Source of the DNA: a virus
IMG/VR virus record: IMGVR_UViG_3300045988_148823
Location: 1-42,182 of that record
Length of the DNA: 42,182 bases
Direction: 5' to 3' (one strand)
Shown: positions 1 to 42,182 of the stretch, one piece after another
Layout: each line of letters starts with the position of its first letter
How positions within the stretch are numbered: the first letter of the stretch is position 1
Translations under genes and position numbers: made by a program
Notes under the pieces: model-generated
Told to the model about the DNA's origin: nothing
Database searches by the model: none
The model's input: the letters and a program-made list of their open reading frames with translations, nothing else

Positions 1-55
1 AGATGAATTAGCTACAGAACAGTTAATAGAAAAAGTAAATACTGTTGGTATAGAT
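1..55. repeat. Terminal direct repeat; bases 1-55 are identical to 42128-42182 (overlap of a circular or circularly permuted molecule)
   Basis: Read directly: agatgaattagctacagaacagttaatagaaaaagtaaatactgttggtatagat occurs at both ends, 55/55 identical. The sheath reading frame is continuous across it. Confidence 0.95.
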
Positions 56-1330: not shown

Positions 1331-2998
1331 ATGAGTAGTACAGAAAAAGTATTAAAAGCCAAAATTCAAGCAATAGATAATTTTACTAAGCCTATGCAAA
1401 AGGTAATTAGTCAAACTAAAACATTTCAAACTACTGCAAAAGCAGTTAAACCTTTAGTATTGAAAGCTAAAGATATGGCTAGTAAAGTTATATCTAAGGT
1501 AAAAGCACAAGTAGATAAATTTAAGGCTACTAAATTTGGTCAGTTTATCTTAAAAGCTAAGGATATGGCTAGTAAAGTGTTATCTAAAGTAAACGGAACA
1601 CTTCGAGCCTTTGCTGGTAAGGTTTGGAGTGCTACTGTATCAGTAAAAGATAAAGCTTCAAGTGTATTATCAAGTATACAAGGGAAACTAAGTGCATTAG
1701 CAGTTGGTGCTACTATTACAATTGGGGCAAAGACTGGGTTTAATGAATTAGCAAACGAACAAACTGAGAAATTAACCATAAATAGAGTAATCCAAAATAG
1801 CGGGAAATCCAAAGAAGAAGCTAGAAAATCAACTGATGAGTTCTATAAGTACTTAGAAGATTATGCAAATAAAACTCCTTTTGAAACTTCGGCAGTAACT
1901 CAATTTGGTACTAAGGCTATGATGATGTCAAAAGGTAATGTTGGCAATGCTAAAGAACTTACAAGTATGATGGGAAATGTTAAGGCATTTGTAGGAAATC
2001 TTAGAACAGAAACAGAAGTTGCAGAGGCTTTCTTTAGTGCTAGTAATGGCAATATGGAAATGCTTAATAATATGCTAGGAACTCAATATAAAACATTTGA
2101 AGAAGCTAAAAAAGGTATTGCTAAAAATCAAGGTGGATTAGTTGAAGAAATGTCTACTACCTTAGGTGGTTTATTATCTACTATAACGGGTAAAGTTAAA
2201 AATAGCTTAAAAGGTGTTACTAAAGTATTTGCTGATATGCTAAGTGGTAGTATGAGTGGGATAATAAGCTTTATAGATAGTATTTCACCTAAAATGGTTG
2301 CTATGGCTGAAAGTGTAAAAGCAGGTTTTGAAGCTTTCTCTAAGTCCGAACAAGCTAGTCAATATATGCAAATATTTAAAACTGTATTTGAAGTTGCTTG
2401 GAATTTAGTAAAAAGCACTATAGAAGCAGTAAGGCCAGTTGTAGAAGCTATATTTAACTTTATAGCACAACATTCTACTGAAATATCAACTATAGTTCAA
2501 ACATTTGGTATTGTATGGCAATCAGTATGGAAAACAGTCGGTGTACTTTTACAAGGTGCTTGGAGTATATGTGAGCCTATATTAAGTACATTGATAGAAG
2601 CATTAGCTAAAGTCCAAGGTGCAGTTGAAAAAATATGTGAGTGGTGGAACAAGATGACTGAACTTCTTAAAACTCCTATAAACGCAGTTGTGAATGTAGT
2701 GAAAAAAGGTGCTTCATGGGTAAGTGATAAACTTGATAAATTAGGGTTGTCAGAAGGAAACAATGCTTTTGGTAGTGGTAGAATTGCAAGAGATGGAACT
2801 GTAAGAACGCTTCACGAAGGAGAAAAAATTCTGACAAAACAAGAGGCAAATAGATACGACAAAGGTCAAAATACTAATAGCATAAATGTAGTTGTAAATG
2901 GTTTAACAGTAAGAGAAGAATCTGATATTAATAAAATAGCTTCTCAATTACTTAAGAAAATAAATGAAAGTAAAATAGTTTATGCAGGAGGTTATTAA
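1331..2998 (+). CDS. Tail tape measure protein
   Basis: 555 aa and helical. Internal repeat LKAKDMASKV(I/L)SKV occurs twice. Gly/Ala-rich hydrophobic central part. Located directly after the chaperone pair. Confidence 0.85.
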   Translation: MSSTEKVLKAKIQAIDNFTKPMQKVISQTKTFQTTAKAVKPLVLKAKDMASKVISKVKAQVDKFKATKFGQFILKAKDMASKVLSKVNGTLRAFAGKVWSATVSVKDKASSVLSSIQGKLSALAVGATITIGAKTGFNELANEQTEKLTINRVIQNSGKSKEEARKSTDEFYKYLEDYANKTPFETSAVTQFGTKAMMMSKGNVGNAKELTSMMGNVKAFVGNLRTETEVAEAFFSASNGNMEMLNNMLGTQYKTFEEAKKGIAKNQGGLVEEMSTTLGGLLSTITGKVKNSLKGVTKVFADMLSGSMSGIISFIDSISPKMVAMAESVKAGFEAFSKSEQASQYMQIFKTVFEVAWNLVKSTIEAVRPVVEAIFNFIAQHSTEISTIVQTFGIVWQSVWKTVGVLLQGAWSICEPILSTLIEALAKVQGAVEKICEWWNKMTELLKTPINAVVNVVKKGASWVSDKLDKLGLSEGNNAFGSGRIARDGTVRTLHEGEKILTKQEANRYDKGQNTNSINVVVNGLTVREESDINKIASQLLKKINESKIVYAGGY

Positions 2999-3657: not shown

Positions 3658-5060
3658 TTAAATTAATATGCCAAAAGGTTAATGGAGAAAAACTTGATCT
3701 AACTAATTTATTAATTAATGTTACTTGGAGTGGGGATTATAAAAGTTGTGCTAGAAAACTTGAATTTTCTTTGATAAGTAGTCCTATGGATAAAAATATT
3801 CCTAAAGTTGATATACCTTTAATGAGTGTTATTAGTTTCTACGAAGATGATAACGAATTATTTAAGGGTTTTGTGTATGAAAGAGAAAAATCAAGTGATA
3901 ATAGTATGAGTTTCCTATGCTATGACTATTGTGCAAAGCTTAATGATATAAAAGTATCTTATAATATAAAGAATGAAACTGCATCTAGTATATATAATAA
4001 ATTCTTAACCGAATATAAGCTTAATAAAGGTGATATAGTTCAAGCTAATACTAAAATCAAGAAAGTATTTTTAGGAACTACTGCTTATGATATGATTATG
4101 ACCGCTTACACAGAAGAAGCTAAAAAGACTGGTAAAAAATATATGTTATATAGTAAAGGTGATAAATTTTATTCTACTGAAAAAGGTATTATTAAGCTTA
4201 GCTTATCTTTTGAAGAGGGTAAAAACATATTATCAAGTAGTTTTAAAGAATCTGTATCAAATATGGTTAATAAAGTATTAATTGTAGATGAAAACGGAAA
4301 TAAAGTATCAGAAGTAAAAAATGATGATTGGCACAAAGCTTATGGATTATTTCAAGATGTTTATAAGCAACAAGAAGGAAAAGACAGTAATACAGAAGCT
4401 AAAGCAATGCTAAAAGATATTGAGCAAACTTGCAGTCTAACTGGTTTTGGTGATACTACTTGTATAACTGGATATGGCGTTCAAGTTAAAGATTCTTATA
4501 CTGGATTAGTAGGTTTATTTTATATAGATAGTGATACTCATACTTGGTGTGGTGGGAATTATACTATAGACCTAGAATTAAATTTTAAAAATATTATGAA
4601 TGAAGTATCTAGTGGGCAAGATGAACAAACCGAAACAAGTTCAAGTTCATCAAGTTCAAGCAGTTCTACTTCAAGTAGTAGCAGTTCAAATTCTATAGGT
4701 GATAAGTTAGTTAGCTTAGCTAAATCAAAGCTTGGTTGCAAATATGTATGGGGTGCAACTGGACCTAATACATTCGACTGTAGCGGACTTACGAGTTGGT
4801 GTTATAAACAAGTTGGTATATCTATTCCTCGTACTTCTTTAGCACAGTCTAAAGGTGGTAAGGCAGTTAGTAAATCTAACTTACAACCTGGGGATTTACT
4901 ATTTTGGAAAACTACAAGTGCTGAAGTTGGTCATGTTGGAATGTATGTTGGTAATGGTCAATTTATTCACGCACCTAACAAGTCTAAGCCAGTAAAATAC
5001 GATAGTTTAAGCAATTCTTATTATTCTTCAAGATTTGTAAGAGCAAGGAGGTATTATTAA
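3654..5060 (+). CDS. Tail/baseplate hub protein (XkdQ-like) fused to a C-terminal NlpC/P60 endopeptidase
   Basis: ATG at 3654 overlaps the upstream stop (ATGA); the track's TTG at 3636 is less likely. Poly-Ser linker at about 4636-4694. NlpC/P60 motifs are FDCSGLTSWCY and GHVGMYVGNGQFIHAP. Confidence 0.8.
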   Translation: MIKLICQKVNGEKLDLTNLLINVTWSGDYKSCARKLEFSLISSPMDKNIPKVDIPLMSVISFYEDDNELFKGFVYEREKSSDNSMSFLCYDYCAKLNDIKVSYNIKNETASSIYNKFLTEYKLNKGDIVQANTKIKKVFLGTTAYDMIMTAYTEEAKKTGKKYMLYSKGDKFYSTEKGIIKLSLSFEEGKNILSSSFKESVSNMVNKVLIVDENGNKVSEVKNDDWHKAYGLFQDVYKQQEGKDSNTEAKAMLKDIEQTCSLTGFGDTTCITGYGVQVKDSYTGLVGLFYIDSDTHTWCGGNYTIDLELNFKNIMNEVSSGQDEQTETSSSSSSSSSSTSSSSSSNSIGDKLVSLAKSKLGCKYVWGATGPNTFDCSGLTSWCYKQVGISIPRTSLAQSKGGKAVSKSNLQPGDLLFWKTTSAEVGHVGMYVGNGQFIHAPNKSKPVKYDSLSNSYYSSRFVRARRYY

Positions 5061-5786: not shown

Positions 5787-6813
5787 TACTTATGAAAATA
5801 TAAAACAAAGAATACTTGATAATATAAATATAGATATAGACAAAAGAGAAGGTAGCTTTACTTCAAATATGGTAAGTGCATTAGCAGAAGAACTTGCAAA
5901 AGCTTATATAAATATGAGTGATATACTAAGCCTTGGCTTTATAGAAGATACCTTTGATACTTTCTTAGATAAAAGGGTGAGCGAATTTGGGGTGTATAGA
6001 AAACAAGGAACTAAGGCTATAGGAGAAATAAAAGTTGAAGGTAAAGAAGGTGTAACTATTGAAAATGGCACACTTGTAAAAGCTAACGACTTATATTTTA
6101 CAGTATTAAATGATATAGAACTTCCAACAGATAATATTTTATATGTAGAAGCTAACGAAGTAGGATATAAATATAACTTACTTGCAAATACTGAATTTGA
6201 GCTAGTTGAAAAGAATGATAAAGTAACTAAATTAGTAAATGAAACTGACTTCTCAAAAGGTGTAGATGTTGAAAGTGATGAAGATCTAAGAAAAAGATTT
6301 GTTAAAGTTGTAAATAACCCAAGTACAAGTGGAAATAAGGCACACTATGAAGAATGGGCTTTAGAAGTTGATGGAGTTGGAAGGGTTATAGTTTATCCTT
6401 TATGGAATGGCAACGGTACTGTAAAAGTAATGATAATAGGTAACGATAATAAACCAGTTACGGAAGAAATAATTGAAAATTGTAAACTTCATATTGAAGA
6501 AAATATGCCTATAGGATGCCAATTAACTGTCATTACTCCTAGCTTGTTAAATGTGGCTATAAATGCTTCTGTAGAGGTTAAAGTAGGTTATACCTTAGAG
6601 GATATTAAAGCAGACTTTGAAGCTTCTTTAAATGATTATTTAAAAGAGATTACAACGGAATTAACTTATTCTAAAGTGTATGGGTTATTAGCTAATCATG
6701 TTGGGGTAGAAGATATATCAATGTTAAAATTGAATAATTCTAGTAATAACATAACAATATCAGAAGATAAAATAATAAATATATCAGAAATAAATTTTAG
6801 TGAGGTGGTTTAG
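5779..6813 (+). CDS. Baseplate J-like protein (XkdT-like)
   Basis: 344 aa. Size, position and overall look match the Baseplate_J family (NPSTSGNKAHYEEWALEVDGVGRV). Confidence 0.8.
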   Translation: MSNTYENIKQRILDNINIDIDKREGSFTSNMVSALAEELAKAYINMSDILSLGFIEDTFDTFLDKRVSEFGVYRKQGTKAIGEIKVEGKEGVTIENGTLVKANDLYFTVLNDIELPTDNILYVEANEVGYKYNLLANTEFELVEKNDKVTKLVNETDFSKGVDVESDEDLRKRFVKVVNNPSTSGNKAHYEEWALEVDGVGRVIVYPLWNGNGTVKVMIIGNDNKPVTEEIIENCKLHIEENMPIGCQLTVITPSLLNVAINASVEVKVGYTLEDIKADFEASLNDYLKEITTELTYSKVYGLLANHVGVEDISMLKLNNSSNNITISEDKIINISEINFSEVV

Positions 6814-7356
6814 TTGAGTTTAATCAATAAGCTACCTTCTTTTTATGATAATGATATTACTAAACCTATACAAGATTCTTTTACTGTAGAAGCTAATTCT
6901 ATAAATGATGAAGTTGAAAACACATTAAATCAATTTTATGTTGATAGTGCAACTTATGGGCTTGATAAGTGGGAGGCTATGCTTGGTATATCTAAAAATA
7001 ACTTTGACTTCTTAACTAGGCGAGAAAATGTAAAAGCTAAAATGAGAAGTAAAGGAACAACAACTTTTACTATGATTAAAAATTTATGTGAAGCTTATTC
7101 TAATGGGATAGTTGAAATCAATGTAGATCATAGTAATTATAGCTTTGAGATAGTTTTTATATCAACTATAGGTGTGCCTTTAAGTTTTGAAGAACTTGAC
7201 AGAGTAATAAATGAAATAAAGCCATGTCATTTAGCACATAGTTACAAATTTAATTACAACACAAATAAAGATGTGTCTAAGTATACACATGAAGAATTAG
7301 CTTCCTATACACATGAAGAAATTAGAAACTCAAGTGAATTGAGAGGTGGTCAATAA
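6814..7356 (+). CDS. Tail protein (XkdU/YmfQ-like)
   Basis: TTG start abuts the upstream stop. Segment LPSFYDNDITKPIQ...FYVDSATYGLDKWEAMLGI is characteristic of the family. Confidence 0.7.
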   Translation: MSLINKLPSFYDNDITKPIQDSFTVEANSINDEVENTLNQFYVDSATYGLDKWEAMLGISKNNFDFLTRRENVKAKMRSKGTTTFTMIKNLCEAYSNGIVEINVDHSNYSFEIVFISTIGVPLSFEELDRVINEIKPCHLAHSYKFNYNTNKDVSKYTHEELASYTHEEIRNSSELRGGQ

Positions 7357-14782: not shown

Positions 14783-14892
14783 ACGTTCAGTGGAATTGAC
14801 GGTATAAATAAAAATATAATACCCACACGTTCCGTGGAATTGACGGGGTACGTTCCGTGGAATTGACGGGGTTAATTCGATGGAATTGAACA
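14783..14892. repeat. Iteron array: four direct copies of about 20-22 bp, ACGTTCCGTGGAATTGACGGGG
   Basis: Copies lie at 14783-14802, 14827-14848, 14850-14871 and about 14873-14892 (degenerate). The core TGGAATTGA starts at 14791, 14835, 14858 and 14881, giving spacings of 44, 23 and 23 nt. The array is GC-rich against an AT-rich background. Confidence 0.85.
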
Positions 14893-15384: not shown

Positions 15385-16269
15385 ATGAAATATATACACG
15401 GTTTTTTAAGCAGCAGATTGAAAGAGGAAAAAATAAGCCATGATGAAAGCTTAGTTATAAGATATTTATTAAACTTTATAAATAGTAACAAGATGGAAAA
15501 GGTGCTTGTAAATGGTGAATTTTATTATTGGGTAAAATATGAAAAAGTAGCTACAGATTTAGAAATATTAGGAGTTAAAAAACAAGCTATAAGCGATATG
15601 TTAATTTATGATTTAGGAGAAAAGCCAAGCGATTGGGAAGAAAGGCTTAACTCAATGAAAGAAAGTAGCAGAAAGAAAAAGATGAAATCTAAATTTATAG
15701 GAATATTTAAAAGATACACTAAAAAAGATGCAGAAGGCACTAAATCTTATTTTGCCCCTACTGAAAAATTATATTCACTTCTTCCAAGCATAACGGAAGA
15801 TGATGAAGATATGAAAAATAAAAAAGCCCCTACTTTGCCACAAGTAGAAGCCGAAGAAATCAAACCTAATAAAAGTATATGCAATTCTGATATAAATAAT
15901 ACTTCATTTGATGAAAAAAATCAATGTAAAAAAGTAGAAAGTGAAGTAGTGAAAGTTATAAATAAAAGTTGTGTAAATATTAGAAAGCAAGATTTAAAAG
16001 ATTGTGAAGAAGAATTTACTGATATAGATAAATTAAAAGAAGCTTTAGAGGTATGCGAGAAAAATAATTCTCACGGTATTAAATCATTAAGAATGGCTTA
16101 TAAATATGGGAATGTTAATATCAATAATTCAAATAAAAAACAAAGTACAATATTTATGGCAGATAGTAAAGTTATTGTAGATGGAAAATTAAAAAGTGTA
16201 GCTGATATGACTGAGGAAGAATTTGAACAGAAGCTTAGAGAAAAATGGGGAAGAAACTTTATAGGCTAA
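15385..16269 (+). CDS. Putative iteron-dependent replication initiator (Rep-like, N-terminal winged helix)
   Basis: 294 aa with RBS aggggga. N-terminal wHTH-like segment (LVIRYLLNFINSNKMEKVLVNGEFYYWVKYEKVATDLEILGVKKQAISDML). Lies immediately downstream of DnaA boxes, iterons and the AT tract. No family recognised by eye. Confidence 0.4.
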   Translation: MKYIHGFLSSRLKEEKISHDESLVIRYLLNFINSNKMEKVLVNGEFYYWVKYEKVATDLEILGVKKQAISDMLIYDLGEKPSDWEERLNSMKESSRKKKMKSKFIGIFKRYTKKDAEGTKSYFAPTEKLYSLLPSITEDDEDMKNKKAPTLPQVEAEEIKPNKSICNSDINNTSFDEKNQCKKVESEVVKVINKSCVNIRKQDLKDCEEEFTDIDKLKEALEVCEKNNSHGIKSLRMAYKYGNVNINNSNKKQSTIFMADSKVIVDGKLKSVADMTEEEFEQKLREKWGRNFIG

Positions 16270-18358: not shown

Positions 18359-18395
18359 GAAGCTATGGAATTAATTTTCTATAGCTTTTTATTTT
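18359..18395 (+). terminator. Rho-independent terminator
   Basis: AAGCTAT (18360-66) pairs with ATAGCTT (18381-87), followed by a T-run. Confidence 0.6.
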
Positions 18396-18476: not shown

Positions 18477-18698
18477 ATGAAAATATATACTTTAGAAAAT
18501 AAAAATGAAATATTAGCTATATTAACTCACAAAGATAATATGAGTTATAGAGATTTTAGAAATATATGTTTAGAGGTTAATGAAGAAGCACAAAATGACT
18601 TTTACACTTTAAAGGATATATTAACTAGCGACTATGGTTTCCAAACTGTAGAAGCTTGTGGAGGATTTGAAGTGGCTAAAAAGAAAGGAAGCTTCTAA
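18477..18698 (+). CDS. Hypothetical protein
   Basis: 73 aa with RBS gaggggga. Confidence 0.6.
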   Translation: MKIYTLENKNEILAILTHKDNMSYRDFRNICLEVNEEAQNDFYTLKDILTSDYGFQTVEACGGFEVAKKKGSF

Positions 18699-18776: not shown

Positions 18777-18896
18777 ATGGATTGGTCAAAACAATGTTAT
18801 CAATGTAACAAATTTACAATAATTGAAGAATATGAAGATAGATGGATATGTAAATGCGATATATGTGGAGAAATATTTACAAAATGGAAAAGATAA
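18777..18896 (+). CDS. Small zinc-ribbon protein (39 aa)
   Basis: MDWSKQCYQCNKFTIIEEYEDRWICKCDICGEIFTKWKR*. RBS aggaggg upstream. CxxC ... CxC-x2-C arrangement. Confidence 0.45.
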   Translation: MDWSKQCYQCNKFTIIEEYEDRWICKCDICGEIFTKWKR

Positions 18897-19017
18897 AAAA
18901 TAAAGGTGGGGACAATTCCTCACCTACTACTATTACTACTAATATTTTTATCATTTTTATATAAATTCTTTATAATATATTTTTCTTATATTGTAGCAGA
19001 TTTCAAGGGGGCTAGCT

Positions 19018-20184
19018 ATGATAATAAATTTAGGTAAATATTCTTTTTTAAATAATGCAAAAGAAAAAATTATTAATTTAATTTGTGATAAATTTAATAT
19101 AGCAGACTATCCAAATCTGCATAGTTTTATAGATGTTAAGCAGTTAGATGTTATAAATGTATATGATAATGAAGTTTTGTATAAGTTTAAATTAAGACTT
19201 AAAAGACATGGAGAAGTTACAATAAATAATTTAGAAGATTATAGAGAAGTAATTGAAAATATAGTTGAAAGATCTATAAATTTTAAGATAGTTGATTATA
19301 AAAATATATATGTAGAAGTTTTGTATTCAGATCAAGAAAAAGATCAAGAAAATATAGGAATCAGTAACACAATTAAATATGAATATATGCCTACAGAAAC
19401 TTTTGATAAGTATAAAGTTGATAATACTATAAAGTATCAATTCAAAGAAGGAGAAAAGGAAGGGCTTAGCTTTTATTTAGGTAAAGATTTAGAAGGTAAT
19501 GACTTCAAGATAGATATATTAGATGGTAGCTTATTAATAGGTGGCATGACTGGGGCAGGGAAATCTAATATTGTAAATGTATTGATTGCAAGCTTAATGC
19601 TTACTTATACTGAAAAAGAATTAGTTTTCTTAGGTTGTGATATGGCTGAATCTGATGTGTATTATTTCAGAAATCATAAACATTTTAGAGGAATGTCTAC
19701 TACTTGTGGTAAGTTTTTAGAACAAGTTGAATGGTTAGAAAAGAAGTTTAAAGAAAGAGCAAAAATATTAAATGATGCAGGGTGCAGAAATGTAGTAAGT
19801 TATAATCAAAAGCATGATACAAAAATGAGTTACTTTGTATTTGTAATAGATGAAGTTGTATTATTGACTAGAAATAGTAAATGTAAAGATAAGCTTCACG
19901 ATATAATGTGTGTAGGAAGAAAGTATGGATGTTATTTTATATTATGCTTACAAGATGCTACAAAAGACACTATAGGTAAATGCAAAATGAATTGCCCACA
20001 AGTTATAGGACTTAGAACTAATGATGAAACTGATAGCAATACTATTATAGGCAAGGGGCATAATTTACAAGATATAAAAGACGTAGGAAGATGTAAAGTT
20101 AAAAATAAAAATGGAGTTACAGAAGTTCAAAGTTATTTTATAGAAGAAGATTTAATAGATAAATTATTAAAAGGCTGTAAATAG
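19018..20184 (+). CDS. FtsK/SpoIIIE-family P-loop ATPase, with no TM segments and no gamma domain
   Basis: Walker A LLIGGMTGAGKSNIVN, Walker B YFVFVIDEVVLL, and GRKYGCYFILCLQDATKDTIGKCKMNCPQVIGLRTNDETDSNTIIG match the FtsK motor core. The roughly 170-aa N-terminal region is unrecognised. Confidence 0.8.
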   Translation: MIINLGKYSFLNNAKEKIINLICDKFNIADYPNLHSFIDVKQLDVINVYDNEVLYKFKLRLKRHGEVTINNLEDYREVIENIVERSINFKIVDYKNIYVEVLYSDQEKDQENIGISNTIKYEYMPTETFDKYKVDNTIKYQFKEGEKEGLSFYLGKDLEGNDFKIDILDGSLLIGGMTGAGKSNIVNVLIASLMLTYTEKELVFLGCDMAESDVYYFRNHKHFRGMSTTCGKFLEQVEWLEKKFKERAKILNDAGCRNVVSYNQKHDTKMSYFVFVIDEVVLLTRNSKCKDKLHDIMCVGRKYGCYFILCLQDATKDTIGKCKMNCPQVIGLRTNDETDSNTIIGKGHNLQDIKDVGRCKVKNKNGVTEVQSYFIEEDLIDKLLKGCK

Positions 20185-20195
20185 GAGGACTCAAA

Positions 20196-20591
20196 ATGGT
20201 TTCATATTGCTATAGGTTTAAAGATATTAATAATAACGTAATTTATGTTGGTAAAACTGTAGATATAAACAAAAGAATGGCACAACATTTCGGAGGTAAG
20301 GGACACCTTGATAAAGATTGTTATAAATCTGTAGCAGTAATAGAGTATCAAAAGTATAAGACCGAAAGTGATGCTTTAATTTATGAAACTTATTATATAA
20401 CAAAATATTCTCCTAAGTATAATAAATTAGGTCAATCAAGAGATAAACCAACGGTCCAGTTAGAAGAAAAGGAATGGAAAACTTATCAAGTGCTTAAAAA
20501 GCAAGTTGAAAAAGGTGAAGCAAATTGGGGTTGTTTAACTTATATATTAATAATTGCTTTAATATATGCAATATTTCAGTTGATAGCTTAG
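20196..20591 (+). CDS. GIY-YIG nuclease domain protein with C-terminal transmembrane anchor
   Basis: YCYRFKDINNNVIYVGKTVDINKRMAQHF and ALIYETYYITKYSPKYNK fit GIY-YIG. The C-terminus WGCLTYILIIALIYAIFQLIA is a hydrophobic helix. Starts 11 nt after the FtsK-like gene, with RBS aggagga. Confidence 0.7.
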   Translation: MVSYCYRFKDINNNVIYVGKTVDINKRMAQHFGGKGHLDKDCYKSVAVIEYQKYKTESDALIYETYYITKYSPKYNKLGQSRDKPTVQLEEKEWKTYQVLKKQVEKGEANWGCLTYILIIALIYAIFQLIA

Positions 20592-20601
20592 AGGTGTAAA
20601 C

Positions 20602-20772
20602 ATGAATGATAAAATTAATATGGCTATAAAAGAAAGTGGATTAAAAAAGAAGTGGATAGCTGAACAATTAGACATAACTTATAATAGCCTAAGGAGAAAA
20701 TTGAAGGGCGAAATTGATTTTAACAAGTTGGAATTAGAAAAGCTTAACTCTATATTAGAAAAATATCTATAA
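20602..20772 (+). CDS. Small HTH protein (56 aa)
   Basis: MNDKINMAIKESGLKKKWIAEQLDITYNSLRRKLKGEIDFNKLELEKLNSILEKYL*. RBS gaggtg upstream. Below the track cutoff. Confidence 0.55.
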   Translation: MNDKINMAIKESGLKKKWIAEQLDITYNSLRRKLKGEIDFNKLELEKLNSILEKYL

Positions 20773-20908
20773 ATGTGTTATAATTATATTACCATATGTA
20801 GTATTAAAATAAATTTAAATGGGGTATAACACTTTTACCTTGAAATTTTGTAAAATTTTATTGACTTGAAAATGTACTTCCTGAATTGGAGGTATATTTT
20901 TTTATTCA

Positions 20909-20941
20909 TTAGTTGCATAAATGCGACCGAAGTTGTATATT
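20909..20941 (+). promoter_or_regulatory. Promoter P1 with palindromic operator overlapping the -35
   Basis: -35 TTGCAT (20913-18), 17-nt spacer, TG-extended -10 TATATT (20936-41). Operator GTTGCAtaaaTGCgAC at 20912-27. Confidence 0.6.
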
Positions 20942-20974
20942 ATAAATATAAGTTTTTTAAAAGGAGATTTTGAG

Positions 20975-21163
20975 ATGATAGGTAGCAAGATAAAAGAAAT
21001 AAGAGAAGCTAAAGGCATAAGCCAATATAGATTAGCACAAATTACTGGAATAAATAGAAGTACTATAAAAAGATATGAAGAAAATTATATAAGAAAGATA
21101 AATTTTGATAATTTAATTAAGATATGTGAAGCTTTAAATACAGATATAAAAGAATTGCTATAA
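20975..21163 (+). CDS. XRE-family HTH protein (62 aa), Cro-like
   Basis: ATG at 20975 follows aaggag; the track start at 20921 lies in the promoter. IGSKIKEIREAKGISQYRLAQITGINRSTIKRYE is a typical HTH_3 segment. Confidence 0.8.
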   Translation: MIGSKIKEIREAKGISQYRLAQITGINRSTIKRYEENYIRKINFDNLIKICEALNTDIKELL

Positions 21164-32820: not shown

Positions 32821-33264
32821 TTGAGTTTAACCATAAAACAAGAAATATTCGTACAGAGATTGATTGAAGGCTATTCTCAAAGAGAAGCCTATAAATTCGC
32901 ATATAATTGCGAGAAAATGAAAGATGAAAGCATAGATATAGAAGCTTCTAAATTATTTAATAACCCTAAGATTTCCCTAAGGTATCAAGAGTTGTTAGAT
33001 GAATATAAGGAAAAAGCTAAATGGAACAGAAGTAAAGCAGAAGAAAAGCTTATGTGGTTACTTGATAAATCTCAAGAAGATATTGAGTACAAAGGATTGA
33101 AACAAGCTAATAGTTCATCAATGCTTAATGCTATAAAAGAATTGAATACCCTTACTGATTTATATCCTAAAAAGAATAAAGAGGATAATAATCTAGAAGA
33201 TAGAGAAGCCGAAAAAATAGCTAATGCAATTCTTGAGTTAAGAGGTAGAAATGGAACTAGATAA
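32821..33264 (+). CDS. terS: Terminase small subunit
   Basis: TTG start after aaggaggtg. LTIKQEIFVQRLIEGYSQREAYKFAY...ASKLFNNPKISLRYQELL is typical of Terminase_2/P27-type small subunits. Confidence 0.8.
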   Translation: MSLTIKQEIFVQRLIEGYSQREAYKFAYNCEKMKDESIDIEASKLFNNPKISLRYQELLDEYKEKAKWNRSKAEEKLMWLLDKSQEDIEYKGLKQANSSSMLNAIKELNTLTDLYPKKNKEDNNLEDREAEKIANAILELRGRNGTR

Positions 33265-33898
33265 TTATACCGAAAAACAAATAGAGGTTTTAGAAAGTTT
33301 CGCTATTGATAATCCTAAGATATTAATATGTAGTGGAGCAAAAAGAGCAGGTAAGACTTTTATACTTATTAAAATATTTTTAGCTCATGTATCATTATTT
33401 AAAAATCAAGGATTAAGCTTCATAATTGGGGGAACTACTCAAGCTTCAATTAGAAGAAATATATTAAATGACTTAGAAGCTATTTTAGGCAGAGAAATAA
33501 AGTTTAAAGATGATGGACATTTTCCTTTATATGGAAATAAGATTTATTGCTTTCATGGGGCTAATGCCGACAGTTACAAAGCTATGAGAGGTTTTACGAG
33601 TGCAGGTGCTTTACTTAATGAAGCTACTACATTACATGATACTTTTGTAAAAGAAGCTATTTCAAGATGTTCTTATGATGGTGCTAGAATTTTTATGGAC
33701 ACTAACCCAGAGAACCCTACTCATACAGTAAAAGTTAATTACATAGACAAAGATGGTCAAAGACTTAAAAATGGTCAATTAAATATAAAAGCTTTTAATT
33801 TTACTTTGTATGATAATACTTTTTTAAATAAAGAATATGTGGAAAGTATTGAAGCTTCTACACCTAGTGGAATGTTTTATGATAGAGATATTTTGGGT
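33251..33898 (+). CDS. terL: Terminase large subunit, exon 1 (ATPase domain)
   Basis: Walker A ILICSGAKRAGKTF and Walker B-like ALLNEATT. The protein-like sequence stops making sense after ...YDRDILG. The track ORF runs on 21 codons into the intron. Confidence 0.8.
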
Positions 33899-34937
33899 AA
33901 ACCTATTGCCCCGTATATCAGTAATGGTATATTGAAAATCGGGTTAAAATTGGAAGGCTAAGTTAATGATGAATAAGTTAATAGAATTGTGTTATAATAT
34001 ATATAAGGAGTGTGGGTGTTATGATTATTATATATTCTATAACAAATACTATTAACAATAAAAGATATATTGGTATATCACAAGATTATAAGAACAGAAA
34101 AAGAGTTCACGAATGGGCTATGAAAAACAATAAGCACAGAAACATTAAGCTTCAAAGAGCAGTTAATAAGTATGGGTATGATAATTTTAAATTTGAAGTA
34201 CTTGAAGAAATTGAAACTGATGACAGAATCGAAGCACTTACTTTAGAAAATAAATATATTATTAAATATGATACATATAAAAATGGTTATAATCAAAGTG
34301 AAGGTTTTGAAGGTAGCACTTTGCAAAAGTATTCAAAAGAAAGACTTGAAAAAATGCGAGTTAATATGCTTGGGAATACAATATGGGAAGGGAGAAAGCA
34401 TACAGAAGAAGCTAAAGCCAAGATAGGCAAGGCTCACAAAGGTAAAATTGTAAGCCTAAAAACTAGAGAAAAAATAAGTAAAGCTAATAAAGGCAAAGCT
34501 ATTGGAGAAAATAATCATTTTTATGGTAAAAACCATACAGAAGAAACTAAATCTAAAATAAGAAAAAAGAATGGTAAACCTATTATATGTATAGAAACAT
34601 CTATAAAATATGATAGTATAAACCAATGTGCTAATGATATGAATATAGATAGGAAAGCTATTGAACGAGTTCTTAATGGTAAATACAAGCAAACAAAAGG
34701 ATATACATTTAAATATATATAATCATTAATATGCTAATCAATTACCAATCCTAAAGAGAAATCTTAGGAAGGTTTAACGACTAGATAAAGTAAGCTAAAT
34801 ATTAAAGACCGAAAGGTCTTTTTTATATGCAGAAATATCCACGAAATCCGAGTTCCTAATGGGAATATGAGATAGTCTGAACTTATAGGAAACTATAAGA
34901 AGTAGAGGATAAAGAGCCTTTACGATAACAATAATTG
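33899..34937 (+). mobile_element. Group I intron interrupting terL, carrying a homing-endonuclease ORF
   Basis: Exon 1 ends in T (33898), which can wobble-pair with G33908 in a short P1 (GGGT/GCCC). The intron ends in G (34937). AGATAGTC at 34870-77 resembles the conserved J8/7-P7 element, with a complementary GACTA at 34779-83. GNRA hairpin AAAGACC-gaaa-GGTCTTT at 34804-21. Joining the exons gives ...YDRDILG|TWVASEGVVYQDF, the conserved terminase junction. Confidence 0.7.
34021..34722 (+). CDS. GIY-YIG homing endonuclease (I-TevI-like, with NUMOD3-type repeats)
   Basis: ATG at 34021 lies 10 nt after aaggag. MIIIYSITNTINNKRYIGISQDYKNRKRVHEW is the GIY-YIG segment. Three repeats: GRKHTEEAKAKIGKAHKGK, SLKTREKISKANKGK and GKNHTEETKSKIRKKNGK. 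Confidence 0.85.
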   Translation: MIIIYSITNTINNKRYIGISQDYKNRKRVHEWAMKNNKHRNIKLQRAVNKYGYDNFKFEVLEEIETDDRIEALTLENKYIIKYDTYKNGYNQSEGFEGSTLQKYSKERLEKMRVNMLGNTIWEGRKHTEEAKAKIGKAHKGKIVSLKTREKISKANKGKAIGENNHFYGKNHTEETKSKIRKKNGKPIICIETSIKYDSINQCANDMNIDRKAIERVLNGKYKQTKGYTFKYI

Positions 34938-35510
34938 ACATGGGTTGCTAGTGAAGGAGTAGTGTATCAAGACTTTAATAAAGATAAACATTATATAAAA
35001 AATATAGATAAAGTTGATATTAAAAAATACTTTTGTGGTGTCGACTTTGGGTGGGAACATTATGGCTCAATAGTAGTAATTGGAAAAGATATAAATGATA
35101 ATTATTACTTAATAAAAGAATATGCTTACCAACACAAAGACATAGAAGAATGGATTGATATAGCCAAAGAAATTAAAGCTAAGTATGGCAATGTTAATTT
35201 TTATTGCGACCATGCTAGACCTGATTATATAGATAAACTTAAAAGAAGCGGTATAAGAGCAATAAATGCTAATAAAGAAGTATTAGAAGGTATTTCAATG
35301 ATAGCTAAATTATTTAAAACAGATAAGCTTTTTATACTTGAAGATAATGTAACTAGATTTAAAGATGAAATATACAATTATGTATGGCAAAAAGGGAAAG
35401 ATGAACCAGTTAAACAATTTGATGATGTTTTAGATAGTTTAAGATATGCAATTTATTCAGAATCAAAGAGAACTGGCAAAATGTTTGATAGAAACAAATA
35501 TAACGTATAG
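34938..35510 (+). CDS. terL: Terminase large subunit, exon 2 (nuclease domain)
   Basis: TWVASEGVVYQDF...CGVDFGWEHYGSIVVIG...FYCDHARPDYI...DDVLDSLRYAIY is a RNaseH-like terminase nuclease pattern. It has no RBS or ATG of its own. Confidence 0.8.
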   Translation, partial: TWVASEGVVYQDFNKDKHYIKNIDKVDIKKYFCGVDFGWEHYGSIVVIGKDINDNYYLIKEYAYQHKDIEEWIDIAKEIKAKYGNVNFYCDHARPDYIDKLKRSGIRAINANKEVLEGISMIAKLFKTDKLFILEDNVTRFKDEIYNYVWQKGKDEPVKQFDDVLDSLRYAIYSESKRTGKMFDRNKYNV

Positions 35511-41297: not shown

Positions 41298-42182
41298 ATG
41301 GGATTACCAATAATAGATATATCATTTAAGCAATTAGCTAAATCAGCAGTAATAAGAAGTCAAAGAGGTATAGTCGCTTTAATATTAAAAGATACTACAA
41401 AGGCTTCTTTAACTGTATTTGATGAAGGGGATATACCATCCAGTTTAGCAGAAGCTAATCAAGGATTGATAAAAGATGTATTAAAAGGATCTCCTAATAA
41501 GATAGAATTGTTTGTATTGGGTACTTCGACTAATATATCAGAAGCATTAACATATTTTGAAGGTGTAGAGTTTAATTTAATGTGTATGCCTTCGGCTGAA
41601 ACTTCTGATGTAACTGCTATAAAAACATTTATAAAGAAAATGAATGATGTTGTTAAATATAAATGTGATGCAATAATTGCAAATGACAAAGCAGATAGTG
41701 AAGCTATAATAAACTATACTGCTAAAAATATAGTTGTAGGTGGCGAGTCTGTAACTACTGCTAATCATAGTGCAAGGATAGCTGGACTTATAGAAGGGAC
41801 TCCTCTACATCAGTCTATAACTTTTGCTACTTTATCAGATGTTGATGCTATAGAAAATTTAACTAAAGAACAAGCTGATACTCGTATAGATAATGGGGAG
41901 TTAATCCTAGTAAGAGAAATGGGAAAAGTGAGAGTTGCAAGAGGTGTAAACTCGCTTACTACTTTAACTGATATTAAAGGTAATGCTTTCCAAAAGATAA
42001 AATTAAGAAAAACTTTAAATCTAATACATAACGATTTAAGAAGGGTCATAGTAGAAAAATACATAGGTAAAGTTCCTAATAACTATGATAATAAATGTGT
42101 TCTTATAACTGAAATAAAGAACTATTTAGATGAATTAGCTACAGAACAGTTAATAGAAAAAGTAAATACTGTTGGTATAGAT
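41298..42182 (+). CDS. Tail sheath protein, N-terminal part (open to the window end; continues at base 56 after removing the 55-nt overlap, stop at 218-220)
   Basis: ATG at 41298 follows gaagggg. MGLPIIDISFKQLAKSAVIRSQRGIVALILKD...ARIAGLIEGTPLHQSITFA...GELILVREMGKVRVARGVNS is XkdK-type sheath-like. Not in the track because it has no stop within the window. The joined product is 349 aa. Confidence 0.85.
   Translation, partial: MGLPIIDISFKQLAKSAVIRSQRGIVALILKDTTKASLTVFDEGDIPSSLAEANQGLIKDVLKGSPNKIELFVLGTSTNISEALTYFEGVEFNLMCMPSAETSDVTAIKTFIKKMNDVVKYKCDAIIANDKADSEAIINYTAKNIVVGGESVTTANHSARIAGLIEGTPLHQSITFATLSDVDAIENLTKEQADTRIDNGELILVREMGKVRVARGVNSLTTLTDIKGNAFQKIKLRKTLNLIHNDLRRVIVEKYIGKVPNNYDNKCVLITEIKNYLDELATEQLIEKVNTVGID

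Follow-up and report, generated by a model that had tools for sequence, protein, structure and literature searches.

SNIPE (PD-lambda-1) from E. coli is a membrane-anchored GIY-YIG nuclease that has been shown experimentally to cut phage DNA during injection. Its anchor prevents autoimmunity, and it joins a conserved nuclease to a hypervariable N-terminal membrane adapter (PMC13190303). In Bacillota IME/ICE, an FtsK-related gene, tcpA, is the immediate 5' neighbour of a gene encoding a non-canonical nicking relaxase, and TcpA genes have been lost, gained and replaced between elements (PMC5357655). FtsK/SpoIIIE-like genes have also been annotated in Bacillota phages for about two decades; the papers retrieved on them only propose roles in sporulation or segregation (PMC3359378, PMC4113786, PMC11526630), and the ATPase gene of phage Fah was reported to be delayed-early in the lytic cycle (PMC4113786).

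Here, we describe a phage operon that pairs an FtsK-like ATPase with a GIY-YIG nuclease carrying a predicted membrane anchor, reveal the strict linkage of the two genes and the cassette-like diversification of the motor, and propose that the pair may act as a motor-assisted exclusion device. An earlier note on this DNA knew of no described phage or defence module with such a pairing, and a full-text literature search likewise found no paper describing an FtsK-like ATPase together with a membrane-anchored GIY-YIG nuclease.

An operon between two terminator-like hairpins

The window, by which we mean the whole 42,182-nucleotide stretch analysed, comes from an uncultured gut Clostridia phage with a complete, circular genome of 42,127 bp. 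The phage has its own packaging genes (TerS, a split TerL and a portal protein). Its initiator is related to a RepA_N-containing protein through the C-terminal half of the latter, the genome has iteron-like repeats, and no integrase and no ParA- or ParM-type gene was present among the non-structural genes scanned. The phage is probably maintained as a plasmid. Rfam and tRNA scans of the window were both empty, and we found no DNA-modification gene in it that could shield the phage's own DNA. A megablast search with 17–23 kb of the window gave no match to cultured close relatives in the phage collection, and tblastn with the primase-helicase returned nothing close; the lineage is uncultured. 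A megablast search with 1–25 kb against plasmids matched only phage-plasmids of Paraclostridium and C. difficile, over short stretches of tail genes, and the hosts named for relatives are Clostridium, Paraclostridium and Peptostreptococcaceae.

The earlier note had read a two-gene unit at this locus. The pair is real, and both ORFs lie at the positions first given for them, but the unit is larger, with five ORFs between two terminator-like hairpins:

18359–18388, + strand: intrinsic-terminator-like hairpin (12-bp stem, then a T-run) that closes the preceding transcription unit; upstream module boundary
18477–18698, + strand: p73, 73 aa, first gene of the unit
18777–18896, + strand: 39-aa zinc-ribbon ORF (CxxC...CxC...CxxC, read from the sequence) with its own AGGAGG site; variable accessory gene
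18948–18976, + strand: candidate sigma-70-like promoter, TTATCA-17-TATAAT, 40 nt 5' of the ATPase start
19018–20184, + strand: FtsK/SpoIIIE-family hexameric-motor ATPase, 388 aa (PF01580, 3e-16; PHROG 1358, 1.4e-53)
20196–20591, + strand: UvrC-type GIY-YIG nuclease, 131 aa (PF01541, 7e-17), with a tail anchor predicted from hydropathy
20602–20772, + strand: HTH56, 56 aa, Fis/CII-like DNA-binding protein with a helix-turn-helix; the unit ends with this gene
20868–20901, + strand: intrinsic-terminator-like hairpin (14-bp stem, then a T-run); downstream module boundary
20921–21163: XRE-type regulator gene, the next gene after the downstream terminator, which opens the recombination/replication block

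The unit comprises four to five genes. Terminator-like sites are enriched between 14.5 and 22.3 kb (5 found, 0.6 expected from shuffles). The promoter candidate agrees with the consensus at 10 of 12 positions, a consensus match only, in AT-rich DNA in which promoter-like sites are not enriched over shuffles. The ATPase stop and the nuclease start are 11 nt apart, and the AGGAGG ribosome-binding site of the nuclease overlaps the ATPase stop codon.

By tblastn, 22 of 23 related loci have p73 ahead of the ATPase, at 45–97% identity; it is absent from the very divergent locus L116, and no 73-aa gene was called upstream in L121. It matches no Pfam or PHROG family and could possibly be a regulator or inhibitor of the machine. 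The zinc-ribbon ORF occupies the same position in only 5 of 23 loci. HTH56, which matches HTH_8 (4e-4), Phage_CP76 (1.5e-3) and PHROG repressor families, adjoins the pair in 18 of 23 loci; in L004 and L118 its gene precedes that of the ATPase. Searching the unit for oriT-like or other cis elements gave just short repeats at chance level, and no relaxase or T4SS gene was found in the window or in any related locus. The module as a whole has the plasmid-type replication region on one side and the early genes, led by the XRE gene, on the other. Downstream and in the same orientation are Erf, ERCC4, DnaD-like, primase-helicase and SSB genes, with that of the Erf/Rad52-type annealing protein about 1.6 kb from the module.

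An FtsK-like motor and its nuclease partner

Pfam and PHROG support the original call of an FtsK-like ATPase followed by a GIY-YIG domain. The FtsK_SpoIIIE match covers ATPase residues 147–287 (60 bits, cutoff 24), and the motifs first quoted for the protein, GGMTGAGKSN (Walker A), FVFVIDE (Walker B) and a QD...GKCKMNCPQVIGLRTNDETDS block, are present, with G176, G181, K182, D278, E279 and Q312 invariant among 54 relatives. Structural prediction (AF2 model, pLDDT 79) gave the FtsK motor and TcpA as best Foldseek matches, at about 1e-21, and profile comparison with PDB sequences returned EccC (3e-23), FtsK (5.5e-23) and TcpA (5e-17). HerA-NurA and SIR2-HerA are also among the fold matches, with HerA at 1e-9 to 1e-6 as against 1e-21 for FtsK and TcpA.

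The region N-terminal to the motor core (residues 147–388) had been described as a single unrecognised domain of about 170 aa. It is instead made of three predicted parts: a low-confidence helix (1–29), a folded, soluble alpha/beta domain (30–108, pLDDT 80–89) and a conserved linker predicted to be disordered (109–146). The domain stays close to unrecognised, as the sole structural matches to a separate AF2 model of it are weak ones to the N-terminal part of FtsK/TcpA motors (E about 0.06–0.1). As the earlier note held, the protein lacks N-terminal membrane segments and a gamma domain: the highest Kyte-Doolittle (KD) window, 1.29, falls on the Walker B strand, no transmembrane segment is found, FtsK_gamma is not matched at E up to 1, and in the AF2 model the protein ends with the motor core. 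The description as soluble holds for the window protein, but not for many relatives. Among 96 homologues, a soluble N-domain is found in 20, whereas about 40 have an N-terminal hydrophobic helix (22 reaching KD 1.6, the rest 1.4–1.6) and about 30 an amphipathic N-terminus of the LEPLVD or FRPLIN type. By hydropathy, none has a multi-pass membrane domain, and the number of N-terminal hydrophobic helices in a relative never exceeds one.

Several other identities for the ATPase were considered and rejected. It does not group with packaging ATPases of the A32/PRD1 P9 type, a grouping that the earlier note had said would count against its reading: in the BFVD library of predicted structures, FtsK-like phage proteins come first (1e-38 to 1e-14), A32-type proteins follow at about 1e-7, and the phage has TerL. 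A chromosomal FtsK/SpoIIIE does not fit a 388-aa protein without a membrane or gamma domain, and true FtsK proteins retrieved by the profile carry PF09397 (P0222–P0224). EssC/EccC gives the best NCBIfam and PDB sequence scores because of the shared motor domain only; the protein has no FHA domain or tandem ATPase domains, the phage has no T7SS genes, and FtsK/TcpA folds fit better than a T7SS EssC-type translocase. It is no TcpA-type coupling protein in the strict sense, having neither two N-terminal TM segments nor accompanying relaxase/T4SS genes, and a HerA-NurA complex is excluded by a partner that is GIY-YIG rather than NurA and by the far weaker match to HerA structures. Nor is the pair a known defence system: PADLOC gave weak matches to mad8 (4e-11), SspH and HerA in the ATPase domain and weak GIY-YIG matches, no model matched at family level, and the MADS preprint offered no mechanistic lead. 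Finally, the conserved ATPase cysteines (C256, C289, C322, C326 and C359) were considered as a metal site but are not essential, since their conservation breaks down among the most divergent pairs.

The nuclease consists of a catalytic domain (residues ~3–80; 61.9 bits, cutoff 22.6) and a C-terminal hydrophobic helix (~114–130) that ends the protein with LTYILIIALIYAIFQLI at KD 2.46. Its closest solved structure is the UvrC N-terminal domain (1yd6, 1.4e-11). All 115 aligned sequences, the window protein and 114 full-length cluster representatives, keep Y6, Y17, R27, E64 and N76 unchanged. Among the representatives, 113 of 114 reach a C-terminal KD of 1.6 or more, and the helix is kept despite sequence drift. 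This hydropathy agrees with the membrane anchor first suggested for the protein and predicts that the nuclease is held at the membrane through a C-terminal tail anchor. No DNA-binding module was found on it by Pfam. In Tsamsa-like Bacillus phages, a nuclease core of 42% identity is joined to a different, non-hydrophobic C-terminal extension in place of the anchor. UvrC-type GIY-YIG domains are nickases, and GIY-YIG enzymes cut hydrolytically, forming no covalent 5' adduct. A homing endonuclease of the I-TevI or Seg type was rejected: the nuclease has no NUMOD, IENR1 or HTH module and its gene is core rather than patchy. True homing endonucleases do occur in the same genomes (34012–34722 in the window; 4122–4979 in L092).

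Linkage of the pair and cassette replacement of the motor

Loss of co-conservation had been set beforehand as the result that would speak against the pair. We found the two genes strictly kept together: a GIY-YIG gene follows the FtsK-like gene in 31 of 31 related contigs with enough DNA, usually after a gap of 0–30 nt. Searching from the nuclease side recovered the pairing in 5 of 5 contexts having upstream sequence, and approaching through the flanking ERCC4 gene recovered it in all 12 loci with enough upstream DNA. Pairing is kept at 32–36% ATPase identity (L116 and L118), including at 32% identity with different flanking genes, and it survives where a homing-endonuclease gene has been inserted between the two. 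Other genes of the region come and go (an 87-aa gene in 2 of 18 loci, a 74-aa gene in 0 of 18, the zinc ribbon in 5 of 23).

Every occurrence of the pair falls in one lineage of uncultured Clostridia/Peptostreptococcaceae phages, where it is core and syntenic; plasmids, chromosomal islands and other phage types yielded no instance. Among phage records matching FtsK-like genes, 181 of 225 are Bacillus phages. Of at least 50 distant FtsK-like loci, none has a GIY-YIG gene of this family within 5 kb, and downstream genes at 47 such loci are heterogeneous (Replic_Relax 4, primase zinc ribbon 3, integrase 3).

Within the lineage, near-identical phages exchange the ATPase as a cassette. Comparing the window with L031, the flanks share 88–100% DNA identity and the ATPase ORF only 57–71%, its N-terminus is replaced, and the breakpoints coincide with the ATPase ORF boundaries. 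More broadly, when six neighbouring genes are compared over 105 locus pairs, the ATPase core ranks lowest in conservation in 47 of them; chance would give about 17.

A possible exclusion machine and the alternatives

We tentatively favour the view that the pair is a split, motor-assisted analogue of SNIPE, serving in superinfection exclusion or against other invaders; among the three roles first proposed for the locus it is the best supported, given the SNIPE precedent (PMC13190303) and a like pattern of conservation. The operon would then encode a two-part DNA-destroying machine on the cytoplasmic face of the cell membrane. The tail anchor would hold the nuclease at the membrane, away from the nucleoid and the resident phage genome, and the ATPase would act as a ring motor gripping double-stranded DNA. 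In the window phage the motor could get to the membrane solely via its nuclease partner, while in many relatives its own N-terminal hydrophobic or amphipathic helix may add a second membrane route. DNA appearing at the membrane, whether a superinfecting phage genome with its free end or some other DNA on its way in, would be caught by the motor, reeled in and handed to the nuclease to be nicked or cut, and self would be told from non-self by location and free ends rather than by sequence. The sequences themselves show the domains, the intact motifs, the conserved hydrophobic helices, the gene linkage, the operon limits and the turnover of the motor; we infer that the two proteins form a complex, how they sit in the membrane, which DNA they act on and that they serve in exclusion.

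Several features support this exclusion reading: the obligatory pairing of the two genes, the invariant catalytic residues and near-universal C-terminal hydrophobic helix of the nuclease, its lack of a DNA-binding domain, and the variable membrane targeting of the motor. The experimental precedent of SNIPE, with its constant nuclease and variable membrane/adapter part, points the same way, as do the cassette replacement of the motor, which repeats that pattern, and the autonomy of a module that is bracketed by terminators between the replication region and the early genes. Pairs of a translocase and a nuclease are moreover an established design in defence and repair (HerA-NurA, SIR2-HerA, the DndFGH nickase/translocase), and the weak PADLOC matches to mad8, SspH and HerA are in line with it. 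Against it, PADLOC gave no family-level match and nothing like the SNIPE/PD-lambda-1 model, the pair belongs to the syntenic core of a single phage lineage, unlike defence cargo, which is typically mobile, and the Replic_Relax partner in Bacillus phages and the delayed-early ATPase gene of Fah fit a role on the element's own DNA.

The main rival, which we consider unlikely, is conjugation-type mobilisation of the element's own DNA by a TcpA-type coupling ATPase and a GIY-YIG nickase. The nick would perhaps be guided by HTH56, the motor would feed a resident FA-type T4SS, and the phage genome would spread as a mobilisable plasmid. The earlier suggestion of a remnant of conjugative coupling is wrong as to "remnant", because the genes are intact and under selection, but survives in the form of this working TcpA-like ATPase and nickase module. 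Gene order and cassette swapping match the tcpA/relaxase pattern of Bacillota IME/ICE, the element is plasmid-like (circular, without an integrase, with a RepA_N-related initiator and iteron-like repeats), pCW3 TcpA aligns along the whole motor (5e-17) and is a top fold match, and UvrC-type domains nick DNA. The Replic_Relax partner in Bacillus phages also fits mobilisation, and small C. perfringens plasmids that bear ftsK/spoIIIE-like genes are believed to be mobilisable (PMC10210947). However, the family profile scores TcpA at 63 bits as against 119–133 for the Bacillus phage clade and leaves TcpB unmatched, and the window ATPase has no TM segment and its relatives at most one, as against two TM-like segments in TcpA. 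The unit and its surroundings contain no relaxase, T4SS gene or recognisable oriT-like repeat. A hydrolytic GIY-YIG enzyme cannot pilot DNA as relaxases do, and a tail-anchored one would be unable to travel with it; no GIY-YIG enzyme is known to act as a relaxase.

Somewhat less probable still is a role in lytic-cycle DNA processing, either in degrading the host chromosome, for which T4 EndoII, a small GIY-YIG enzyme, would be the model, or in HerA-NurA-like end resection feeding the Erf/Rad52-type annealing protein. All members of the lineage have the module as part of their core, the Erf, ERCC4, DnaD-like, primase-helicase and SSB genes follow it closely on the same strand, HerA-NurA and HerA-effector complexes are among the fold matches, and the Fah homologue is delayed-early in lytic growth, as reported (PMC4113786). 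Such a role nevertheless leaves the nuclease anchor and the membrane-targeting N-termini of the motor unexplained. A terminator, the XRE gene and several small genes lie between the unit and the recombination genes, no DNA-modification gene to protect phage DNA was found in the window, and cassette-like diversification is unusual in housekeeping replication and recombination enzymes.

We also consider doubtful a role as a conduit for the phage's own DNA, with the tail-anchored GIY-YIG nickase replacing a relaxase and the FtsK-like pump exporting the plasmid form through a resident conjugation channel or moving it from the mother cell into the forespore.

The odds are poor for episome segregation or spore carriage, another of the original suggestions, in which a SpoIIIE-like pump would keep the phage-plasmid in daughter cells or move it into the forespore in place of a partition system. 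A sporulation link has repeatedly been proposed for Bacillus phages (PMC3359378, PMC4113786). Among phages, it is mainly those of spore-forming Bacillota that carry FtsK-like genes, the hosts named for relatives also fit, and the scanned non-structural genes include no ParA/ParM-type gene or integrase. Against segregation, a pure pump has no use for an invariant, catalytically intact nuclease. The pump lacks a gamma or other sequence-reading domain to set direction, and a septal channel would need the multi-pass membrane domain that is absent. Furthermore, a free circular plasmid is not trapped in the closing septum as the chromosome handled by SpoIIIE is.

That the two genes are neighbours through lineage-wide gene order only, with independent functions, is very improbable: every context does come from one phage lineage with a broadly syntenic early region, but the pair is never split where other genes come and go, its linkage survives ATPase cassette replacement, homing-endonuclease gene insertion and divergence to 32% identity with changed flanking genes, the nuclease ribosome-binding site overlaps the ATPase stop codon, and the pair's sole membrane anchor in the window is on the nuclease.

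The motor's obligatory and interpretable nuclease partner in this lineage turns a vague annotation into a concrete, testable model, and the pair is small and modular and can readily be cloned, mutated and assayed. If the exclusion reading is true, the spatial self/non-self principle of SNIPE would extend to a phage-encoded system, to Gram-positive gut anaerobes and to an ATP-driven, two-protein version, and the cassette-like turnover of the motor would be explained. If instead DNA transfer is the function, a phage genome would be using conjugation-type machinery, and a true conduit would provide a second, virion-independent transmission route for a tailed phage and a new, non-covalent type of transfer initiator.

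Comparison with known systems

The module resembles SNIPE in having a GIY-YIG nuclease with a single hydrophobic helix, here placed at the membrane by hydropathy prediction, and in combining a conserved nuclease with a highly variable membrane/adapter part. SNIPE, however, is one polypeptide (N-terminal TM, DUF4041 DNA-binding domain, GIY-YIG) without an ATPase. In the module the anchor is C-terminal rather than N-terminal, DNA engagement would come from the separate FtsK-like motor, and the system is phage-encoded and belongs to Gram-positive anaerobes. Neither protein matches DUF4041, PADLOC gave no PD-lambda-1 match at E up to 0.1, and no sequence relationship to SNIPE beyond the GIY-YIG fold is detectable.

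The nearest relative of the ATPase outside the family is that of the Bacillus phages gamma, Wbeta, Fah, BtCS33 and SpaA1 (PHROG 1358; 119–133 bits, 27–29% identity), and the BtCS33 protein, like the window protein, has 388 aa and no transmembrane segment. In these temperate phages the order in the lysogeny/early region is small membrane protein, FtsK-like ATPase, Replic_Relax; the partner thus lacks a nuclease domain, and the membrane anchor is a separate upstream protein.

TcpA of pCW3 (PDB 6o1w–6o1z) shares with the ATPase a single PF01580 motor without a gamma domain and a fold match equal to that of FtsK. In both systems the ATPase gene stands directly upstream of a gene for a DNA-nicking enzyme and is replaced between related elements. 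TcpA differs in its two N-terminal TM-like segments (~40–90 in pCW3 TcpA) and in a T4SS locus beside the relaxase, whereas the module has neither T4SS nor relaxase, an affinity to TcpA of 63 bits and a hydrolytic GIY-YIG partner that is predicted to be membrane-anchored.

HerA-NurA, HerA-SIR2 and DndFGH likewise encode a ring translocase of the same superfamily beside a nuclease, nickase or other effector. Their ATPases are soluble and of the HerA clade, and their effectors are NurA, SIR2 or REase/HNH-type proteins, none of them tail-anchored. For the nuclease core, UvrC is the nearest kin in structure and sequence and shares the Y, Y, R, E, N set, but has further domains and works with UvrB. 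The Tsamsa-like 'excinuclease' in turn differs by its non-hydrophobic C-terminal extension and by having no FtsK-like neighbour.

The ATPase and nuclease genes

The FtsK-like ATPase and GIY-YIG nuclease genes lie within a unit of five ORFs enclosed by two terminator-like hairpins, structures of which the scanned region contained five against 0.6 expected from shuffles. The unit is laid out as follows, with retention given among 23 loci:

18359–18388, terminator-like hairpin, upstream boundary
18477–18698, plus strand, p73 (a 73-aa protein), kept in 22/23 loci
18777–18896, plus strand, 39-aa zinc-ribbon ORF, 5/23 loci
19018–20184, plus strand, FtsK/SpoIIIE-family ATPase, 388 aa (Pfam FtsK_SpoIIIE, PHROG 1358)
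20196–20591, plus strand, GIY-YIG nuclease, 131 aa (Pfam GIY-YIG)
20602–20772, plus strand, 56-aa helix-turn-helix protein, 18/23 loci
20868–20901, terminator-like hairpin, downstream boundary

The gene after the downstream hairpin encodes an XRE regulator, and the recombination and replication block starts there. The ATPase and nuclease genes are 11 nt apart, and the TAG stop codon of the former shares bases with an AGGAGG site, an arrangement that suggests, at the level of sequence, coupled translation of the two proteins. The p73 protein gave no family match. In the related contig L116, whose module is the most divergent, a 90-aa protein encoded directly upstream of the ATPase (6625–6897) has two hydrophobic segments enclosed by two CxxC pairs, a membrane zinc ribbon that may correspond to the window's soluble 39-aa zinc ribbon or to the membrane protein whose gene precedes the ATPase gene in the Bacillus phage BtCS33.

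The ATPase matched Pfam FtsK_SpoIIIE over residues 147–287 (3e-16) and PHROG 1358, 'FtsK/SpoIIIE-like protein' (1.4e-53). All of the motor motifs quoted in the earlier note were found in the sequence, and an alignment of 54 relatives revealed invariant residues in Walker A (G176, G181, K182) and Walker B (D278, E279) and at Q312. The description of the protein as lacking a gamma domain and N-terminal membrane segments also held, as we detected neither a gamma-domain match nor a hydrophobic segment. An AF2 model (pLDDT 79) placed the RecA-like core at residues 147–388, preceded by a small folded domain (30–108) and a linker (109–146) that is predicted to be disordered yet is conserved at N117, Y121, Y123, P125, E144, G145, K147 and G149. 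The best structural matches were the FtsK motor and TcpA, the coupling ATPase of pCW3 (~1e-21), followed by EccC/EssC and then HerA; modelled alone, the N-terminal domain gave weak matches limited to FtsK and TcpA, in their N-terminal portion. Among viral structures FtsK-like phage proteins ranked closest and packaging ATPases matched much more weakly, so that the protein does not show the grouping with packaging ATPases that the earlier note had named as a refuting result. With the family profile, the Bacillus phage proteins of SIOphi (133 bits) and BtCS33 (119 bits) outscored TcpA (63 bits). Most of the family shares five invariant or almost invariant cysteines (C256, C289, C322, C326 and C359, including a GKCKMNC motif), at which the most divergent members have other residues (GKMKINF in contigs L116 and L118); the cysteines may form a lineage-specific metal or redox site.

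The nuclease matched Pfam GIY-YIG over residues 3–76 (7e-17), and its core is nearest to the N-terminal incision domain of UvrC (1yd6, 1.4e-11; NCBIfam uvrC, 2e-14). Residues Y6, Y17, R27, E64 and N76 are invariant in 115/115 aligned sequences, comprising the window protein and 114 full-length cluster representatives, and no DNA-binding module was found on the nuclease. The protein ends in LTYILIIALIYAIFQLI, with a Kyte-Doolittle hydropathy (KD) of 2.46; 113 of the 114 representatives carry a hydrophobic helix at this end (mean KD 2.2), and it is kept, with other sequence, in the most divergent pairs. Since the window ATPase is without a hydrophobic segment, this helix would be the pair's sole membrane anchor in the window, and because basic residues precede it the catalytic domain should face the cytoplasm. 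In contrast, Tsamsa-like Bacillus phages encode a 42%-identical nuclease core that bears a different, non-hydrophobic C-terminal extension and has no FtsK-like neighbour. A second, more distant paralogue of the nuclease family (E ~1e-20) occurs on the opposite strand ~3.5 kb upstream in contigs L035–L037 (~1343–1750, minus strand), L106 and L107, and further GIY-YIG paralogues lie ~7–8 kb downstream in L101, L102 and L110.

Conservation and turnover of the pair

The ATPase as query retrieved 96 clusters at 43–92% identity, and a profile search added members at 32–36%. In every related contig reaching past the ATPase (n=31, window excluded, several being near-identical to each other), the GIY-YIG gene comes after it, mostly 0–30 nt away. 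Starting instead from the nuclease (272 homologous clusters), we found an FtsK-like gene directly upstream in 5/5 contexts with upstream sequence, so the pair passed from both sides the co-conservation check that the earlier note had proposed. The pair was likewise present in all 12 loci in which the flanking ERCC4 gene had enough upstream DNA, and it is therefore a core gene of the lineage as opposed to patchy cargo. Small neighbouring genes are gained and lost among loci while the pair is never split. By contrast, no GIY-YIG gene of this nuclease family lay within 5 kb of distant phage FtsK-like genes (≤31% identity) in more than 50 loci, where downstream neighbours were heterogeneous and a Replic_Relax gene was the commonest (4/47). 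As all positive contexts come from one broadly syntenic phage group, the sequence comparisons indicate strict co-conservation within one lineage only.

Four contigs (L092–L095, ~4122–4979) carry a gene for a 285-aa NUMOD3/I-HmuI-like homing endonuclease exactly between the two genes, and the pair is not displaced. SegE-type homing-endonuclease genes adjoin ERCC4 in the same phages, and together these genes mark the lineage as rich in homing endonucleases. The early region of L094 contains an inserted IS605-type OrfB/TnpB (Cas12f-like) gene (602–1747). A C5 DNA methyltransferase gene neighbours Erf and ERCC4 in two other contigs (L121, 6148–7101; L123, 4285–5347); none was found in the window.

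The motor itself turns over. Between the window and the related contig L031, flanking DNA is 88–100% identical and the nuclease 88–99%, while the ATPase ORF is 57–71% identical; the N-terminal third of the ATPase has been replaced, with breakpoints at ORF boundaries. Six neighbouring genes were compared across 15 loci (105 pairs): the ATPase core ranked last in conservation in 47 pairs, where ~17 would be expected by chance, and it fell below both small flanking genes in 69 pairs, as did the nuclease in 62. Cassette exchange that makes large enzymes diverge faster than tiny neighbours is typical of genes facing variable partners. The ATPase N-terminus is modular as well: 20 of the 96 clusters share the soluble domain of the window protein, ~40 begin with a hydrophobic helix (e.g. 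MLIQTILGSVAVGSMAGIYKIL, KD 1.4–2), and ~30 with an amphipathic segment of LEPLVD or FRPLIN type.

The carrier genome

The first and last 55 bases of the window (1–55 and 42128–42182) overlap exactly, so that the window is a complete genome of 42,127 bp assembled as a circle. Its G+C content is 25–30% and one strand holds nearly all genes. These include tail and baseplate genes, an endolysin, TerS, a split TerL and a portal protein, along with an Erf-type annealing protein, an ERCC4 nuclease, a DnaD-like initiator, a primase-helicase and SSB. The large terminase gene (33251–35510) is in two parts with a homing endonuclease gene between them, and Rfam returned no group I intron; the arrangement may be an intron, an intein-less split or a free-standing insertion:

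33251–33961, N-terminal ATPase part of TerL (Terminase_6N)
34012–34722, homing endonuclease, GIY-YIG + NUMOD3 + I-HmuI-like, inside TerL
34935–35510, C-terminal part of TerL (PHROG 5653 TerL)

Positions 14786–14889 contain four direct repeats that resemble iterons or operators, TTC(C/A)GTGGAATTGA(CGG) / TTCCGTGGAATTGA(CGG), at spacings of 44, 23 and 23 nt. They form a G+C-rich island in a divergent region between a minus-strand small-gene cluster (13.0–14.7 kb, with negative GC skew) and plus-strand initiator genes, upstream of the gene for a 294-aa protein (15385–16269). Over residues 145–290 that protein shares 61% identity with a RepA_N-containing protein of the related contig L001, in the C-terminal half of the latter; its N-terminal half is unrelated to the L001 protein and gave no family match, a pattern that resembles a domain exchange in a plasmid-type replication initiator. 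Given these repeats and this initiator, and as the scan of non-structural genes turned up no integrase, resolvase, ParA or ParM, the element is probably maintained as a plasmid. We found no close cultured phage or plasmid relative; named relatives derive from metagenome-assembled genomes of Clostridium sp., Paraclostridium and Peptostreptococcaceae.

Possible roles and known systems

As read from the sequences, any explanation must account for five features: the nuclease is apparently active and lacks a DNA-binding domain, it nearly always carries a membrane anchor, its obligatory partner is a dsDNA motor, and this motor varies in its membrane targeting and turns over in cassette fashion. We tentatively favor, at somewhat less than even odds, a membrane-tethered translocase-nuclease that would catch DNA arriving at the membrane, because interception covers all five features and has an experimental precedent. 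SNIPE, a membrane-anchored GIY-YIG nuclease of Escherichia coli, cuts phage DNA during injection and is prevented from self-damage by its anchor; SNIPE proteins combine a conserved nuclease with a hypervariable N-terminal membrane adapter (PMC13190303). Counting against interception, the pair is a core gene missing from other mobile contexts, and the partner in the Bacillus module is not a nuclease. Among the hypotheses of the earlier note, exclusion or defence has the most support.

Mobilization of the element's own DNA by a TcpA-like coupling ATPase and a nickase is unlikely. In integrative mobilizable and conjugative elements of Bacillota, the gene for a nicking relaxase immediately follows FtsK-related tcpA, and tcpA genes are exchanged (PMC5357655); gene order, cassette exchange and the plasmid-like genome agree with this, but the GIY-YIG chemistry, the anchor and the lack of a T4SS context are at odds with it. 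We consider lytic-cycle DNA processing, whether to break down host DNA or to resect ends for Erf, slightly less probable still, as it leaves the membrane anchors unexplained. For Bacillus phage FtsK-like genes, reported to be expressed as delayed-early in phage Fah, sporulation or segregation has been proposed (PMC3359378, PMC4113786); a pure segregation or spore pump, which the earlier note had also raised, is improbable here as it gives the nuclease no role. That the two genes are merely syntenic is very improbable.

The module is real, well defined and previously uncharacterized, and its function we infer; as the earlier note had supposed, the pairing appears undescribed, a full-text search finding no paper on a phage FtsK-like and GIY-YIG pair. 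It offers a concrete, testable model for long-unexplained phage FtsK-like genes. Bacillus gamma/Wbeta/BtCS33/SpaA1 phages encode a membrane protein, a soluble 388-aa FtsK-like protein and a Replic_Relax protein, in that order. The module is a variation on the FtsK/HerA-superfamily design of motor plus nuclease, seen in HerA-NurA, SIR2-HerA and DndFGH, where a translocase of this superfamily is coupled to a nuclease or another effector, and equally on the membrane-tethered GIY-YIG nuclease. Membership of the SNIPE family is ruled out by the anchor at the opposite end, the separate ATP-driven motor and the absence of any DUF4041 or SNIPE profile match in the module; with the same logic and conservation pattern, the module may nevertheless extend the SNIPE principle.
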